Source: Escherichia coli (GTDB lineage Bacteria; Pseudomonadota; Gammaproteobacteria; Enterobacterales; Enterobacteriaceae). From it: DNA of 64,000 nt. Below are positions 36,019 through 43,436 of the stretch, piece by piece (positions within the stretch are counted from its first letter, which is position 1; every line of letters begins with the position of its first letter). The translations under genes were made by a program, and so were the position numbers. Where the stretch lies: NCBI RefSeq assembly GCF_041886205.1, contig NZ_CP169029.1. One strand, written 5' to 3'. The notes under the pieces are model-generated. The model made no database searches, had not been told where the DNA came from, and saw only the letters and a program-made list of their open reading frames with translations.

Positions 36019-37191
36019 TTGCTGTTGAAACGCCGTCTTATTATTGCTGCTTCTTTGTTCGTTTTTAATTTATCGTCTGGTTTTGCGGCGGAAAACATTC
36101 CTTTTTCACCTCAGCCTCCAGAGATTCATGCCGGGTCCTGGGTATTGATGGATTACACCACCGGTCAGATTCTCACCGCGGGTAATGAGCATCAACAGCG
36201 CAATCCCGCCAGCCTGACAAAGCTGATGACGGGCTATGTCGTGGATCGCGCTATCGATAGTCATCGCATTACGCCAGACGATATTGTCACCGTGGGGCGT
36301 GATGCGTGGGCGAAAGATAATCCGGTGTTTGTCGGTTCTTCACTGATGTTTTTGAAAGAGGGCGATCGCGTATCGGTACGTGATTTAAGCCGAGGTTTAA
36401 TTGTGGATTCCGGAAATGACGCGTGTGTTGCTCTGGCTGACTATATTGCCGGTGGGCAACGGCAGTTTGTTGAAATGATGAACAACTATGCCGAGAAGCT
36501 GCATCTCAAGGATACGCATTTTGAAACAGTGCATGGTCTGGATGCACCTGGCCAGCATAGCTCGGCTTATGATTTAGCTGTGCTTTCTCGCGCTATCATC
36601 CACGGCGAGCCCGAGTTTTATCATATGTACAGTGAGAAAAGTCTCACCTGGAACGGTATCACCCAGCAAAACCGTAACGGATTATTGTGGGATAAAACCA
36701 TGAATGTTGACGGCCTGAAAACGGGTCATACTTCTGGTGCCGGGTTTAATCTCATTGCTTCGGCTGTAGATGGGCAGCATCGTCTCATTGCAGTGATAAT
36801 GGGGGCTGACAGTGCAAAAGGTCGTGAGGAAGAGGCAAGAAAATTACTGCGTTGGGGGCAACAAAACTTTACTACGGTGCAAATTTTGCACCGTGGGAAA
36901 AAGGTCGGAACGGAACGCATCTGGTATGGCGATAAAGAAAATATCGACCTGGGAACGGAACAAGAGTTCTGGATGGTGCTACCGAAAGCCGAAATTCCAC
37001 ATATCAAAGCCAAATATACCCTTGATGGTAAAGAGCTCACCGCGCCAATTAGCGCCCATCAGCGGGTAGGGGAAATTGAACTTTACGACCGTGATAAACA
37101 GGTGGCGCACTGGCCGCTGGTTACCCTGGAATCTGTCGGGGAAGGCAGCATGTTTTCTCGCCTGAGTGATTATTTCCACCATAAGGCCTGA
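36019..37191 (+). CDS. dacD: D-alanyl-D-alanine carboxypeptidase DacD (PBP6b)
   Basis: About 390 aa; signal peptide, SxxK motif (ASLTKLMT), SGN and KTG motifs of class-C PBPs; exact start codon uncertain. Confidence 0.9.
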   Translation: MLLKRRLIIAASLFVFNLSSGFAAENIPFSPQPPEIHAGSWVLMDYTTGQILTAGNEHQQRNPASLTKLMTGYVVDRAIDSHRITPDDIVTVGRDAWAKDNPVFVGSSLMFLKEGDRVSVRDLSRGLIVDSGNDACVALADYIAGGQRQFVEMMNNYAEKLHLKDTHFETVHGLDAPGQHSSAYDLAVLSRAIIHGEPEFYHMYSEKSLTWNGITQQNRNGLLWDKTMNVDGLKTGHTSGAGFNLIASAVDGQHRLIAVIMGADSAKGREEEARKLLRWGQQNFTTVQILHRGKKVGTERIWYGDKENIDLGTEQEFWMVLPKAEIPHIKAKYTLDGKELTAPISAHQRVGEIELYDRDKQVAHWPLVTLESVGEGSMFSRLSDYFHHKA

Positions 37192-37308
37192 CCTTTCTTT
37201 GCAGCAGACTGGCAGGAGTGCGAGTCTGCTCGCATAATCAACACTCATTCCTTGTGGTTTTAATATTGCAACTATACTGTATATAAAAACAGTATTAATG
37301 GAGGCGTC

Positions 37309-37782
37309 ATGAACTACGAGATTAAGCAGGAAGATAAACGTACCGTTGCAGGTTTCCATCTCGTTGGCCCGTGGGAGCAGACGGTAAAGAAAGGTTTTGA
37401 GCAGTTGATGATGTGGGTAGATAACAAAAATATTGTGCCGAAGGAGTGGGTTGCTGTCTATTACGACAATCCAGATGAAACACCCGCCGAAAAATTACGC
37501 TGCGACACCGTCGTGACGGTACCGAATAACTTTACGCTCCCCGAAAACAGTGAGGGCGTCATTCTGACAGAAATTTCAGGTGGTCAGTATGCGGTTGCGG
37601 TGGCTCGTGTAGTCGGTGATGATTTTGCTAAACCCTGGTATCAGTTCTTTAATAGCCTCTTGCAGGACAGTGCTTATGAAATGTTACCAAAGCCCTGCTT
37701 CGAGGTTTATTTGAACAATGGCGCGGAAGATGGGTACTGGGATATCGAAATGTATGTTGCGGTGCAGCCAAAACATCACTAA
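37309..37782 (+). CDS. sbmC: DNA gyrase inhibitor SbmC (GyrI)
   Basis: 157 aa; [37 protein letters not shown]. Confidence 0.95.
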
Positions 37783-37980
37783 TTCATCTCAGGGCGGTGT
37801 GTTAACGCGATGACCACTCTTTTTTTTGAAAGCGAAAAGAGTAAGATGCGCCTTTCAATTTTTTCGCTCCTGCCGGGAAATTACACTGTTCCCGGTTTGT
37901 CCGTCGGATAATTCAGAGGCGCGCCTTCTGGCCGACAGATGAGTTATGAGCGCTTTTAATCTTCATTACGGAGTTTCTGC

Positions 37981-39039
37981 GTGCGTGCCGATAAGTCATT
38001 AAGCCCGTTTGAAATCCGGGTATACCGCCATTACCGCATTGTGCATGGTACTCGGGTCGCGCTGGCATTCCTGCTCACTTTTCTCATTATCCGCCTGTTT
38101 ACTATCCCGGAAAGTACCTGGCCGCTGGTCACCATGGTGGTGATTATGGGGCCAATCTCGTTCTGGGGGAACGTTGTCCCTCGCGCATTCGAACGTATTG
38201 GCGGTACGGTGTTGGGGTCGATTTTAGGTCTTATCGCTCTGCAACTGGAGTTAATCTCGTTACCGCTGATGTTAGTCTGGTGCGCGGCGGCTATGTTTCT
38301 TTGCGGTTGGCTGGCGCTGGGCAAGAAACCGTATCAAGGTTTATTGATTGGGGTGACGCTGGCAATTGTTGTTGGTTCCCCGACAGGTGAAATTAATACG
38401 GCGTTATGGCGAAGCGGCGATGTGATCCTCGGCTCTTTACTGGCAATGTTGTTTACCGGTATCTGGCCACAACGGGCGTTCATCCACTGGCGCATTCAAC
38501 TGGCAAAAAGTCTGACCGAGTATAATCGGGTCTATCAATCTGCATTCTCACCGAACTTACTCGAACGCCCGCGTCTGGAAAGCCATCTACAAAAACTCCT
38601 GACCGATGCCGTGAAAATGCGTGGGCTGATTGCGCCCGCCAGCAAAGAAACCCGTATTCCAAAATCGATATATGAAGGTATCCAGACCATTAATCGCAAT
38701 CTGGTTTGTATGCTGGAGTTGCAAATCAATGCATACTGGGCCACGCGCCCCAGCCATTTCGTGTTATTGAACGCGCAAAAACTTCGTGATACCCAGCATA
38801 TGATGCAGCAAATACTGCTGAGCCTTGTTCATGCGCTGTACGAAGGTAATCCGCAGCCGGTTTTTGCCAATACGGAAAAATTGAACGATGCTGTGGAAGA
38901 GCTGCGTCAGTTGCTGAATAACCACCATGACCTGAAGGTTGTGGAAACACCAATCTATGGTTATGTGTGGCTGAACATGGAAACGGCACATCAGCTTGAG
39001 TTGCTATCGAATCTGATTTGCCGGGCCTTGCGCAAATAA
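37981..39039 (+). CDS. yeeA: inner membrane protein YeeA (FUSC-like)
   Basis: 352 aa with N-terminal multi-TM region; conserved position between sbmC and yeeX. Confidence 0.85.
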   Translation: MRADKSLSPFEIRVYRHYRIVHGTRVALAFLLTFLIIRLFTIPESTWPLVTMVVIMGPISFWGNVVPRAFERIGGTVLGSILGLIALQLELISLPLMLVWCAAAMFLCGWLALGKKPYQGLLIGVTLAIVVGSPTGEINTALWRSGDVILGSLLAMLFTGIWPQRAFIHWRIQLAKSLTEYNRVYQSAFSPNLLERPRLESHLQKLLTDAVKMRGLIAPASKETRIPKSIYEGIQTINRNLVCMLELQINAYWATRPSHFVLLNAQKLRDTQHMMQQILLSLVHALYEGNPQPVFANTEKLNDAVEELRQLLNNHHDLKVVETPIYGYVWLNMETAHQLELLSNLICRALRK

Positions 39040-39210
39040 TTCCTGAACTTCAGAATCATCTTGCTGCTGCTTCGATTCAGCAAGGATAAAGGGTATGATA
39101 GTGAAAAGGGATAAAAGCATTGTCATCTGCGGCAGCTATGAGTAATGTTGGCCCTAACGAATAGCGGTTGCTTAAACGAATCCGACTCTCACATTATCAG
39201 GGGTATAAAA

Positions 39211-39540
39211 ATGGAAACTACCAAGCCTTCATTCCAGGACGTACTGGAATTTGTTCGTCTGTTCCGTCGTAAGAACAAACTGCAACGTGAAATTCAGGAC
39301 GTTGAGAAAAAGATCCGTGACAACCAGAAGCGCGTCCTGTTGCTGGACAACCTGAGCGATTACATCAAGCCAGGGATGAGCGTTGAAGCAATCCAGGGCA
39401 TCATCGCCAGCATGAAAGGTGACTATGAAGATCGCGTTGACGATTACATCATCAAAAATGCCGAGCTCTCCAAAGAACGCCGCGATATCTCCAAAAAGCT
39501 GAAAGCTATGGGCGAAATGAAAAACGGCGAAGCGAAGTAA
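39211..39540 (+). CDS. yeeX: UPF0265 family protein YeeX
   Basis: 109 aa from [41 protein letters not shown]; the ORF-track upstream extension is rejected. Confidence 0.9.
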
Positions 39541-39640
39541 TTCCCGTTTTATTCAATGAGGGTTGCCCGGCAACCCTCATTGCTCATTGATTCTTATCTG
39601 TGTATCACCGTCATCATTCTCATCTGAGAACCAATCGAAA

Positions 39641-39890
39641 TTAACAACAGCCTTCTTCTGTATGCAGCAAGGCAAAAAGTTCTGTAACTCCATTGTTATT
39701 AACTGCACTGGTTACTAACACGTTGTGCGCTCCAGCTTCCCGTAACCAACTTTTCACCAAAGATATTTGTTCCATGCTGGCTAAATCTGCTTTGGTTACT
39801 ACTCCAATGACCGGGTGATTCATGGCCCGGTAGGGCGTTTTTACCTCTAATTCCTGCTTCAGCGCTGAGATTCCTGCTTGTTGCCGGAAA
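39641..39890 (-). pseudogene. C-terminal gene fragment (possibly small GTPase-like); 5' end replaced by an IS66 remnant
   Basis: ORF 39641..39997 has a C-terminal part (VIGVVTKADLASMEQISLVKSWLREAGAHNVLVTSAVNNNGVTELFALL) that reads as a protein fragment, while its N-terminal part is encoded antisense to an IS66 transposase fragment. Confidence 0.4.
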
Positions 39891-39892
39891 AG

Positions 39893-40052
39893 CAGGCACC
39901 TGCCGTCTGAACGGTATCGATCCGGAAGCGTATCTGCGCCATATTCTGAGCATACTGCCGGAATGGCCCTCCAACCGTGTTGACGAACTCCTGCCATGGA
40001 ACGTAGTTCTCACCAATAAATAAGCGTCAATACGGTGCTCCGTTGACGCTTA
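39893..40052 (+). mobile_element. IS66-family right-end remnant (3' end of transposase gene plus terminal inverted repeat)
   Basis: Plus-strand translation GTCRLNGIDPEAYLRHILSILPEWPSNRVDELLPWNVVLTNK* matches the C-terminus of the intact IS66-family transposase at 57043..58614 ([33 protein letters not shown]); followed by caatacggtgctccgttgacgcttac, resembling that copy's terminal repeat. Confidence 0.75.
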
Positions 40053-40437
40053 CTTTAATCCGTTTTCTGAGCTTAGATTTTTCTGTTCCTACCCAGACCG
40101 TGGATTTGGAATTCATTTTTTGTCAGGTCAATGCTAATCGTTAAAACGGCCATAACGCACCTCCACTGGAAGGTTTATCAGTAATATCCTACCGTTGCTT
40201 CATGGTCGGGGCGTCCATTCCATTATTATCGGTTTTCCTTTCTGTTTATAAATGAAAACGCCAGCTGTATTCAGGCTGGCGTCAGGGGAAATGAAGCCTG
40301 TTGAGTGAGATTCACCGGTTCTGGTGCAGAAGCTGCAGATGGCGCAGGGTAAGGACATCTTCTCTTGCCTGCTTAATACAGGACAACAGTGCTGTTTCTG
40401 TGGTTAATGGTACTATACCCTGCATCACTGCATTGTC

Positions 40438-40632
40438 TTACAGCAACTGGTGAGGGCTGGCATAAGTTGCCGGTGTTTCGGTAGAGTCACGGTCATCCAC
40501 CACGCGGAGTGAATAACCTTTTTCAGCGGCCTTATTAATCAGTTCAGTGATATTAACACCATCAATGTCAACGACAATGTGCCCCATATCCAGCGCCTGT
40601 ACGTTAACGCTGTCGGCTTCCAGTGTCATCAT
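40438..40632 (-). CDS. hypothetical 64-aa protein
   Basis: ATG preceded by a strong Shine-Dalgarno (ggaggcgaaatgatg on the coding strand); compositionally typical coding sequence; function unknown to me. Confidence 0.45.
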   Translation of the reverse strand: MMTLEADSVNVQALDMGHIVVDIDGVNITELINKAAEKGYSLRVVDDRDSTETPATYASPHQLL

Positions 40633-40749
40633 TTCGCCTCCGGATACTTACCCAGGGTAATGTTATTTACCGTTCTGTAATTGTCGCGGGTCATCAGGCC
40701 GGTCGCCCTGCGAGCCCGGAGGATATCGATGCTGTTTATTAACTGAGAG

Positions 40750-41459
40750 CGGGTATGGGCGCTGCTTCGCAGACAGGCAGAACTTGATGGTATGCCTGCG
40801 ATCAATGCCAAACGTGTTTACCGGATCATGCGCCAGAATGCGCTGTTGCTTGAGCGAAAACCTGCTGTACCGCCATCGAAACGGGCACATACAGGCAGAG
40901 TGGCCGTGAAAGAAAGCAATCAGCGATGGTGCTCTGACGGGTTCGAGTTCTGCTGTGATAACGGAGAGAGACTGCGTGTCACGTTCGCGCTGGACTGCTG
41001 TGATCGTGAGGCACTGCACTGGGCGGTCACTACCGGCGGCTTCAACAGTGAAACAGTACAGGACGTCATGCTGGGAGCGGTGGAACGCCGCTTCGGCAAC
41101 GATCTTCCGTCGTCTCCAGTGGAGTGGCTGACGGATAATGGTTCATGCTACCGGGCTAATGAAACACGCCAGTTCGCCCGGATGTTGGGACTTGAACCGA
41201 AGAACACGGCGGTGCGGAGTCCGGAGAGTAACGGAATAGCAGAGAGCTTCGTGAAAACGATAAAGCGTGACTACATCAGTATCATGCCCAAACCAGACGG
41301 GTTAACGGCAGCAAAGAACCTTGCAGAGGCGTTCGAGCATTATAACGAATGGCATCCGCATAGTGCGCTGGGTTATCGCTCGCCACGGGAATATCTGCGG
41401 CAGCGGGCTTGTAATGGGTTAAGTGATAACAGATGTCTGGAAATATAGGGGCAAATCCA
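40750..41459 (+). mobile_element. insD: truncated IS2 (3' about 710 bp: C-terminal 218 codons of InsD/OrfB plus right terminal repeat)
   Basis: ORF 40792..41448 translates to the IS2 OrfB C-terminus ([53 protein letters not shown]...); upstream in-frame [14 protein letters not shown] is preceded by a stop; IS2 end ...ggggcaaatcca at about 41459. Confidence 0.9.
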
Positions 41460-41792
41460 GCCACGAATGCGGATTTGTTTACGGCCTGCCAAGGAGTTGT
41501 CTGTTATCTCTACTCCGGGGATGTCCTGCAAATTATCGGCTATGGAGGCATTGGTGGAGTTCTGCAATGTTTGTTGGTCAATAACCTGTATAGTCGCCGG
41601 GCTTTCCCAAAGGTTGCTTGCCGAACGATTCGTGGTCACGACGAGCGTCTCTTCGTTGCTGATTTTTGTTTCTGAAGAAGTTGCGGTTGCAGTAGAAACT
41701 ATCCCAGAAATGCATAATGACAGAGTGGAAAGGATATAAATTCGACAAGGTATATTATATAACATTTCATCCCTCATTAATACAAAGTACAA
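41460..41792 (-). pseudogene. yoeA: N-terminal fragment of a TonB-dependent outer-membrane receptor gene, truncated by IS2 (yoeA-like)
   Basis: ORF 41373..41792 minus begins with a signal peptide and plug-domain motifs (ETLVVTTNRSASNLWESPATIQVIDQQTLQ ... DNLQDIPGVEITDNSLAGRKQIRIRG) and then runs into the IS2 end. Confidence 0.75.
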
Positions 41793-41968
41793 ATGATTGC
41801 TGTAATGATAATTATTTTCATTTATGTTCTCATATATCTATAATTATTGTCATCTTCATAAATTGTAAATATCAAACATTTTTGACCTTAATCATGTTTT
41901 TTGATAGATATTTTACGACTGAACATATCCGTCGTTTCCTCTGACTCGTGTCAGTCGGTCTCTGGTTG

Positions 41969-42010
41969 TATCCACGGACCGCACTCTTGACATAAGAGTG
42001 CGGTCCGTGG
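41969..42010. repeat. 42-bp near-perfect palindrome (ccacggaccgcactctt gaca taagagtgcggtccgtgg)
   Basis: Read directly; 17-bp arms around a 4-nt loop, located just upstream of the yoeA-like fragment. Confidence 0.7.
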
Positions 42011-43436
42011 AAAACGGAGTTGAAAAAATGGTGTCTGAAAGAAGGTACCATCATTGTGATGACAAATACTTTGGCGTGGATAATGTAATTAATTGCTGAA
42101 ATTGACCGTATATGCGGTAAGACTCATATCAGTACCAGGTCCGGTTAATTGCTGATACTAATATAAACTTTTTACAAAAGGATGAATGCAGAAGGTTACT
42201 CTAATGGCCAGAGTGATGACAATGATGGTCAGACGTTGACCTGCAGAAACTGCATTTTAATTGGTCTATAAAGTCTGCAAGAGGAATCAGGGTCAGATCA
42301 GTGAGTCTTATCGCGGCCCGAAGCTATGACTGAAAGAAGGCTGGATACAGAATTGCAACAATTTGGCAATGTCAGAACACAGAAGCTTTGCAAGCAGGTG
42401 AAAGGTTATGTCTAGCAAAAGGAGTATATCAGAATATATCTACTGATGTACAAAACACAACAATAGCTTCATGATATATAAATACGTGATGACGAGTGGT
42501 ACTCCGCATGGTTATTTAACTTCTCAGCACCACTAATGATCCTGAGCAACTTCGTATTTGGGCCATTACCATGGAGTAGAAAGCTGTGTCTGAGAATGCA
42601 GAATTTGAGAAAAGAATTCGCTTTCTTGGAGAGCTTCTGAAAATGGCACGCTAACAACGTTTTGTTAAAAAATGTGAATCACTTGCCGGGGCTGCATTTT
42701 CTATTCGAGGAGAATGTTGACGTAGATATTACAGAAATCTCAGCGCATCAGGATAAACTGCTACCTTAGGTCAACCACCAAAAGAAAATACAATACGTCC
42801 AGTTTGTATGCCTTTAATAACACATCTTCTAAATGTTGAAGAATTATCCCGCCTGCTGAAGAACGTTGCTCTGAGTGTGATAAACCTTTTTATTCTTGAT
42901 GATGTCAGCGAGAAGATGGAATATATCCCCGACTGGGTCGTGGTTACCCGGTTAAACATCTGGTGGCGCTAATAAATCTGGCAAGTCACATTCTGTTGAA
43001 TGCTGTGACAGTGCCTTACCGAGAGAGCGAAATTGTGGTGTTCTAGTGCATAGTCGCCACCATTCCGGATAATTCTATTACGTTGTTTTACAAGTTCTTT
43101 TACAGCGCAGATCTGTCGCTGACGTTGAATCAATAGCCTGGATTTCAGAACACAATGCCCGTTTGCTGGTTGTTCCGGCAGTAGCATTAATTCATTATCT
43201 GAATGAAATGTGTCAATCCACAGAAACCGCTGTCAATGACGCATTTTGTCGGACGTTAACACGAGAAAGTCTGGCTATTCCGTAATGCCATCTTATTTCG
43301 TAATGGATTGAGAATGCTGGATTTTTAATTATATTACGCGCAGTATTAATCGCGTAAATGTTTTGCGGTCAGCAACGGTGGGGGATCCATTGTTCTGTTC
43401 AATGAATACCATCATACATTTGAATCAGGAGTCGGT

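Follow-up and report, generated by a model that had tools for sequence, protein, structure and literature searches.

The closest described relatives of the locus analysed here belong to the CbtA/CbeA (YeeV/YeeU) type IV toxin-antitoxin system of Escherichia coli, in which yeeW is encoded in the same operon and overlaps the stop of the toxin gene with its start. In K-12 MG1655, yeeW (b2006; UniProt YEEW_ECOLI) is the last gene behind yeeR-yeeS-yeeT-cbeA-cbtA in the cryptic prophage CP4-44, and its product is distinct from both the toxin and the described antitoxin of the pair. Tripartite toxin-antitoxin operons have third components, e.g. the SecB-like chaperone of TAC systems, and yeeW resembles these as an extra conserved cistron tied to a toxin-antitoxin pair; we treat this functional analogy as a lead only. 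The transcription unit has been described as yeeRST-cbeA-cbtA-yeeW (PMC7660256), and yeeW is counted among the uncharacterised K-12 genes (PMC11551758). We found no functional study of yeeW in the literature, in which many text matches to 'yeeW' concern other things, and no mechanism emerged from a transposon-screen listing or from a GWAS on the yeeW-yeeX intergenic region. At the level of the protein family, DUF5983 is always found downstream of CbtA and was listed as a downstream 'partner' in a 2023 survey (PMC10790755); likewise, DUF5983-containing proteins are consistently encoded beside cbtA/cbeA (bioRxiv 10.64898/2026.06.09.728211).

Here, we analysed a small open reading frame at positions 40438-40632 (minus strand) of a stretch of E. 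coli DNA of 64,000 nucleotides (the window), which a first-pass annotation had reported from the letters alone as a gene of no assignable function. The frame is genuine: it begins with ATG, comprises 64 codons plus stop, and its translation matches the quoted one exactly. Its composition is indeed as normal as had been noted, with 48.7% GC vs 45.9% in the whole window. Identification rests on the open reading frame list, the translation, Pfam and the match to K-12. The product has the same length as K-12 YeeW and is identical to it in 63 of 64 residues, N38K being the sole change, and each of the two variants is recorded on at least 1000 contigs. Pfam assigns the protein to PF25638 (DUF5983_N) with 99.5 bits (E = 7.8e-29; gathering score 27 bits), the match covering residues 1-54 and model positions 1-56. 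The domain proper corresponds to residues 1-46 (40495-40632, minus strand) and is followed by a Pro/Thr/Ser-rich tail with predicted disorder (residues 47-64; 40441-40494, minus strand). The locus agrees as well. K-12 2077808-2081572 aligns collinearly with the window at 98.8%, and in a megablast search of 5,426 complete E. coli genomes, positions 40100-40764 matched at 99.5%, likewise collinearly, loci whose annotation lists a DUF957 pseudogene, 'yeeW: DUF5983 family protein' and cbtA. The open reading frame is hence no new gene but the known, annotated yeeW, near-identical to its K-12 orthologue and at the same locus. The earlier remark that no function could be assigned from the sequence was fair as to function, while the gene now has both a name and a Pfam family. 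A ribosomal role was discarded: the name 'ribosomal protein P1/L12E' given to some copies by JGI is unsupported, with TIGR03685 reaching 12.9 bits where 100 are required (E = 0.1), and ribosomal matches in Foldseek have E values of 0.5 or more.

Downstream of yeeW, K-12 and the window are alike, with a DUF957 remnant, yoeD/yoeF, tmaR, yeeA, sbmC and dacD. Upstream they differ: K-12 carries intact cbtA, cbeA, yeeRST and flu, whereas in the window the last 127 nt of cbtA are fused to an IS2 fragment. The toxin-antitoxin module is thus wrecked; a tblastn search of the 64-kb window with K-12 CbeA gave no match, and searches with the other members of the cluster recovered a cbtA fragment (approximately residues 84-124) and residues 36-65 of DUF957 only. 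The yeeW copy in the window is an already known gene in a degraded context, which is ordinary for an E. coli/Shigella-type chromosome. As a side observation, window positions 20000-40700 match the best complete E. coli genomes at about 97.9% identity over 89% coverage.

The start region of yeeW lies within the toxin gene. The frame upstream of it ends in GKYPEAK and a stop codon, which translation and tblastn identify as the C-terminus of CbtA, and the TGA stop of cbtA and the ATG of yeeW have four nucleotides in common (ATGA, 40629-40632, minus strand). What is left of cbtA, approximately residues 84-124 plus stop, occupies 127 nt (40629-40755, minus strand), the 5' two thirds being gone; the K-12 BLAST match that runs through this remnant ends at 40764. 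In strain D2, a remnant of the same kind is annotated as 'cbtA, missing N-terminus'. The Shine-Dalgarno motif GGAGG (40637-40641, minus strand) is embedded in cbtA codons for Pro-Glu-Ala. As yeeW begins with two methionine codons, the motif stands 4 nt ahead of the first ATG and 7 nt ahead of the second, so that the canonical motif reported earlier is present, but the reported distance of 6-7 nt is true for the second ATG only. We compared the window with 11 reference loci, a set drawn from E. coli as well as from metagenome and read-assembly contigs that contains both N-domain-only and full-length genes. All 12 loci show the ATGA start with a Shine-Dalgarno-like motif 4-7 nt ahead; in 10 of them this motif is GGAGG, L008 has GGAG and L009 a run of G. 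The gene coordinates of L004, L008, L009, L010 and L017-L020 likewise show the cbtA stop and the start of the next gene sharing 4 nt. This conserved anatomy suggests that in intact operons yeeW would be translated in step with cbtA, and with the overlap and the Shine-Dalgarno motif both inside cbtA, YeeW would therefore be made by ribosomes that have just left the toxin frame. Since motif and overlap are conserved and borne by cbtA, the 'strong' ribosome-binding site of the first-pass annotation appears to be an inherited trait of a toxin-coupled start. Neither motif nor start codon gives any sign of an independent or IS-created gene. A chimeric frame of 60 codons with a TTG start (40629-40811, minus strand) consists of antisense IS2 and the cbtA 3' remnant and ends at the ATGA junction; no Shine-Dalgarno motif was seen in the sequence upstream of it, and it is of mechanical relevance only.

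The present state of the locus can be traced by comparing both sides of the junction with K-12. Window positions 37000-40764 correspond to K-12 2081572-2077808 and positions 40750-43046 to K-12 2069650-2067354, so that the BLAST segments from the two K-12 flanks overlap at 40750-40764; CGGGTAnnGGCGCTG is common to both flanks. In the three-way comparison, the window reads as cbtA through CGGGTA (40750-40755) and then as insD, this perfect microhomology of 6 bp sitting within an imperfect match of 13/15 positions. The comparison thus establishes a deletion of 8,172 bp relative to K-12 that joined cbtA to the interior of the IS2 gene insD. On the IS side, it took insC, the 5' part of insD, yoeA fragment 2, yeeP and isrC; on the operon side, flu, yeeR, yeeS, yeeT, cbeA and about the first two thirds of cbtA were lost, and the operon promoter region also lies within the deleted stretch. 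Of IS2, the 3' 704 bp remain (40756-41459, plus strand, antisense to yeeW), with the 3' part of insD (open reading frame 40792-41448) and the right end, which abuts yoeA; the remnant matches K-12 IS2F (2068941-2069650) at 99.9%. The upstream region of yeeW does run into a truncated IS2, as had been stated. The gene itself does not lie inside an IS scar: the 127-nt cbtA remnant parts it from IS2, and the IS2 remnant faces it in opposite orientation with an internal insD breakpoint and not with an IS end or terminal inverted repeat. Therefore, yeeW adjoins the scar, and the supposed IS scar marks one side of the 8.2-kb microhomology deletion that destroyed a toxin-antitoxin operon.

The cbtA/IS2 junction is spanned by no complete E. 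coli genome of our collection. Strain D2 (NZ_CP010137, 3255-3256 of the extracted locus L003) has the identical cbtA breakpoint after CGGGTA, with 203 bp more of IS2 gone (window 40755-40959), reflecting either a second small deletion that started exactly at the junction or an independent event at the same cbtA site. Further along, the window lacks the IS5 copy (IS5H/insH6) that separates yoeG from yeeH in K-12; the flanks of this site are contiguous at 43043-43046, where the BLAST segments overlap by 4 bp. Several listed open reading frames (60, 118 and 139 aa) (40629-41019 and 41373-41792, minus strand) cross the cbtA/IS2 and IS2/yoeA joints; these are chimeric rearrangement products and not genes.

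After such a deletion, expression is likely to be poor. A consensus scan, limited to sites close to the sigma-70 consensus, found no promoter-like site on the minus strand from 40633 to 41800. Upstream matches on this strand are confined to 41805-41875, ahead of yoeA fragment 1, a TonB-dependent receptor plug pseudogene (41460-41765, minus strand; collinear with K-12 2068635-2068940). These matches are the only candidate origin of read-through transcription into yeeW, and a transcript from there would have to cross about 1.1 kb, made up of the yoeA fragment, the antisense IS2 and what is left of cbtA. By eye, a 19-mer at 41801-41819 (minus strand) resembles a Fur box, agreeing with GATAATGATAATCATTATC in about 14/19 positions; it overlaps with the promoter-like sites ahead of the yoeA fragment, and read-through from this side might then be iron-regulated.

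These observations combine as follows. The gene is the last cistron of the yeeRST-cbeA-cbtA-yeeW operon of the CP4-44-type cryptic island. The 8,172-bp deletion at the 6-bp microhomology joined cbtA at about codon 84 to the interior of insD and stripped the locus of its promoter region, of flu and yeeR/S/T, of the antitoxin gene cbeA and of two thirds of cbtA. With operon promoter and partners deleted, yeeW is a truncated orphan with neither a partner in cis nor a recognisable promoter of its own. Any YeeW would depend on read-through from the yoeA promoter over 1.1 kb, including the antisense IS2, and on initiation driven by the Shine-Dalgarno motif. Our proposal for why the frame is still intact is that it is short and that the loss is recent. 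Most likely, therefore, the yeeW copy in the window is a relic, silent or weakly read through, without a selected function, and we are fairly confident of this interpretation.

The word 'truncated' refers to the family to which YeeW belongs. A HMMER search with YeeW among 1.84 billion representative sequences returned 100 proteins, several of which are 145-163 aa long; the long relatives carry PF25638 together with PF19419 ('DUF5983 C-terminal domain'). When a full-length E. coli member was used as query instead, 994 proteins were found. Among the best 120 of these full-length matches, 118 have exactly 163 aa and the other two 161 and 162 aa, with 163-aa members in Salmonella, Enterobacter, Serratia, Citrobacter, Klebsiella, Yersinia, Pantoea, Kluyvera and others. 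Full-length DUF5983 proteins ('Aec77', 163 aa) begin with a small N-domain, which a Pro-rich linker joins to a C-domain of about 100 aa. Their genes stand in the order cbeA-cbtA-DUF5983-DUF957-DUF4942, an arrangement matched at a coverage of at least 80% in 3699 of the 5426 E. coli genomes. They share with yeeW the homologous N-domain (44-70% identity), the place behind cbtA, the ATGA overlap, the Shine-Dalgarno motif and DUF957 as the next gene. In contrast, the linker and the C-domain motifs CSTAHIT, SEWI.YTGSGYL and HLDA..E.LPGF.TFDW are missing from YeeW; PF19419 finds no match in the protein, whose frame ends at codon 64, and tblastn with the full-length protein matches residues 5-64 alone in the window.

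The alignment of YeeW with the full-length proteins covers their residues 1 to about 47 and goes no further. In the DNA, close full-length loci cease to resemble the window at 40493-40495, and similarity returns in the region of the DUF957 start codon. Approximately 345 nt encoding linker and C-domain have been swapped for about 75 nt, which encode the tail DRDSTETPATYASPHQLL with its stop codon and a spacer. We considered that the tail might be the product of an internal deletion within a full-length gene, but local alignment of the tail with the full-length linker and C-domain gave no significant similarity, scoring no better than shuffled controls. We therefore term the event a replacement and not a simple internal deletion. 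YeeW is accordingly an N-domain-only member of the DUF5983 family with an unrelated, disordered tail of 18 residues. Its 67-aa sister copies are annotated by PGAP as 'DUF5983 family protein, incomplete, missing C-terminus' and sometimes as pseudogenes. It had been remarked that the frame might turn out to be a fragment of a larger disrupted gene or to lack conservation in related genomes. Given the N-domain-only architecture and the PGAP calls, the former is true in the evolutionary sense, YeeW being the N-domain of a 163-aa family, while the latter is contradicted by its distribution.

The short form is old and common and no rare accident. A look at conservation and synteny, as the first-pass annotation had advised, found the frame with its tail in 4067 of the 5426 complete E. 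coli genomes (at least 80% coverage), i.e. in about three quarters of those searched; the median number of places in a genome is two. It occurs at the CP4-44 site as 64-aa and 67-aa alleles and also in an island beside yghD/gspL, there with intact cbtA and intact DUF957, and most protein clusters keep a length of 64-68 aa. Compared with the 67/68-aa alleles of the same chromosomal site (L011, L015 and L018), the K-12-type protein (MMTLEAD...) is missing four codons (KLAL), owing to a 12-nt in-frame deletion directly after the start (window 40620-40632). The DUF5983 N-domain of one distant lineage (about 50% identity; seen on one Logan contig, L021, positions 2606-2971, protein P0208) continues in frame into DUF957-like sequence without a C-domain, which suggests that loss of the C-domain is recurrent.

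Could the short protein nevertheless have a function of its own? YeeW might be a standalone mini-protein whose N-domain binds a partner, be it a toxin of the CbtA family, CbeA or another island protein, and which would modulate type IV toxin-antitoxin activity, in the window in trans on paralogous cbtA copies. We regard this as improbable, yet it is the strongest competitor of the relic interpretation. It draws on the wide distribution of the N-domain-only form with its mostly intact frame, on its presence at more than one island site alongside intact cbtA and DUF957, on the independent distant lineage that also lacks the C-domain, and on the naming of DUF5983 as downstream 'partner' of CbtA in the genome survey (PMC10790755). 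Selection on the N-domain can be read in both directions. By the Nei-Gojobori method, applied to 42 N-domain codons with small counts (3-12 changes per class, 4-12 per comparison), dN/dS was 0.09-0.15 among full-length genes, 0.35-0.63 among N-domain-only alleles and 0.23-0.52 between N-domain-only alleles and the closest full-length gene. All values are below 1, but constraint on the short form is 3-5 fold weaker than on the full-length genes, which is suggestive of relaxed though not absent constraint.

AlphaFold2 (AF2), run for YeeW on an alignment of 46 sequences, gave block-mean pLDDT values of 91-94 for residues 1-40 and of 45-48 for the tail, and predicted an N-domain with a beta-hairpin (8-13 and 19-24) and a helix (28-38). 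In the full-length protein, the alpha/beta C-domain was predicted confidently (pLDDT 80-91) and the N-domain was weak. The N-domain values above 90 speak for a folded mini-protein; however, high pLDDT on short sequences is a known pitfall, against which a 2026 preprint on spurious proteins cautions (bioRxiv 10.64898/2026.06.09.728211). The databases add little in favour of a standalone role. PADLOC had no match for YeeW, full-length DUF5983, DUF957 or CbtA; NCBIfam and PHROGs held no informative family for either YeeW or its full-length relative, the sole match being that of phrog_5003 ('unknown function') to the C-domain; the family profile found nothing among PDB sequences, and no likeness in sequence or fold to solved structures was seen; and hhalign detected no relationship of the family profile to CbeA or YeeT. 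Together with the treatment of sister copies as pseudogenes by PGAP and the loss of promoter and cis partners in the window, these results weigh against a standalone function.

A more far-reaching version, which we put forward as speculation and consider less probable still, is that DUF5983 would be the third component of CbtA/CbeA-type modules, produced in step with the toxin by way of the ATGA junction, and N-domain-only YeeW a selected mini-version that would still bind the partner, in the window in trans. If this were true, YeeW could act e.g. as a decoy, as a second antitoxin or as a regulator of the toxin level. At the family level, strong purifying selection acts on a 163-aa protein that has no recognisable fold and that across Enterobacterales is linked to CbtA, apparently at the level of translation. 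For studying the role of DUF5983, the truncated orphan copy in the window is a poor place.

The interpretation implied by the first-pass annotation, in which a small gene associated with the IS would newly owe its expression to the truncated IS2, fares considerably worse, and we judge it very unlikely. IS elements can create outward promoters, and the IS2 remnant lies just 124 nt upstream of the yeeW start codon. However, its boundary towards yeeW is the breakpoint inside insD, where there is no terminal inverted repeat, the promoter scan found no minus-strand match within the remnant, and gene, Shine-Dalgarno motif and start codon predate the IS event, being identical in genomes without it. 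Of the earlier suggestion that the promoter may be supplied or disrupted by the IS, the disturbance is borne out in that the native operon promoter region is deleted, while supply by IS2 is not. The idea that yeeW is a spurious frame, a non-coding leftover that stays open by chance, can be dismissed almost entirely: for all its shortness and its tail without homology to full-length genes, its match to a curated Pfam domain scores 99.5 bits where 27 suffice, purifying selection on that domain is strong in the full-length genes, and the ATGA start with its Shine-Dalgarno-like motif is present in all loci compared.

The downstream end of the operon completes the description of the locus. The gene following yeeW is a DUF957 remnant that comprises the C-terminal 30 codons (40312-40404, minus strand), as delimited by tblastn (residues 36-65) and by alignment to the intact genes of L017 and L020. 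In the CP4-44 lineage, an internal deletion of 85 nt took the 5' half of this gene, and the remnant is annotated as a pseudogene in L001 and L003. Beyond it, between the DUF957 remnant and the leftover Shine-Dalgarno motif and start of the lost DUF4942 gene, lies a terminator-like hairpin, ACGCCAGC...GCUGGCGU, followed by UUUUCAUUU (40249-40282, minus strand; RNA fold -17.8 kcal/mol, z = -3.7). The hairpin itself spans 40258-40282 ahead of the U tract, and its sequence is kept in all aligned loci. It was not picked up by a simple terminator scan, and Rfam and repeat searches of the region returned nothing relevant; judged by fold and position, it is the probable 3' end of the operon transcript. 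In a further E. coli genome (NZ_LR882052, locus L016, 3001-3158), the last 65 nt of the yeeW region and the DUF957 remnant survive and abut a pseudogene of the Hha/YmoA family, which represents another rearranged version of the island.
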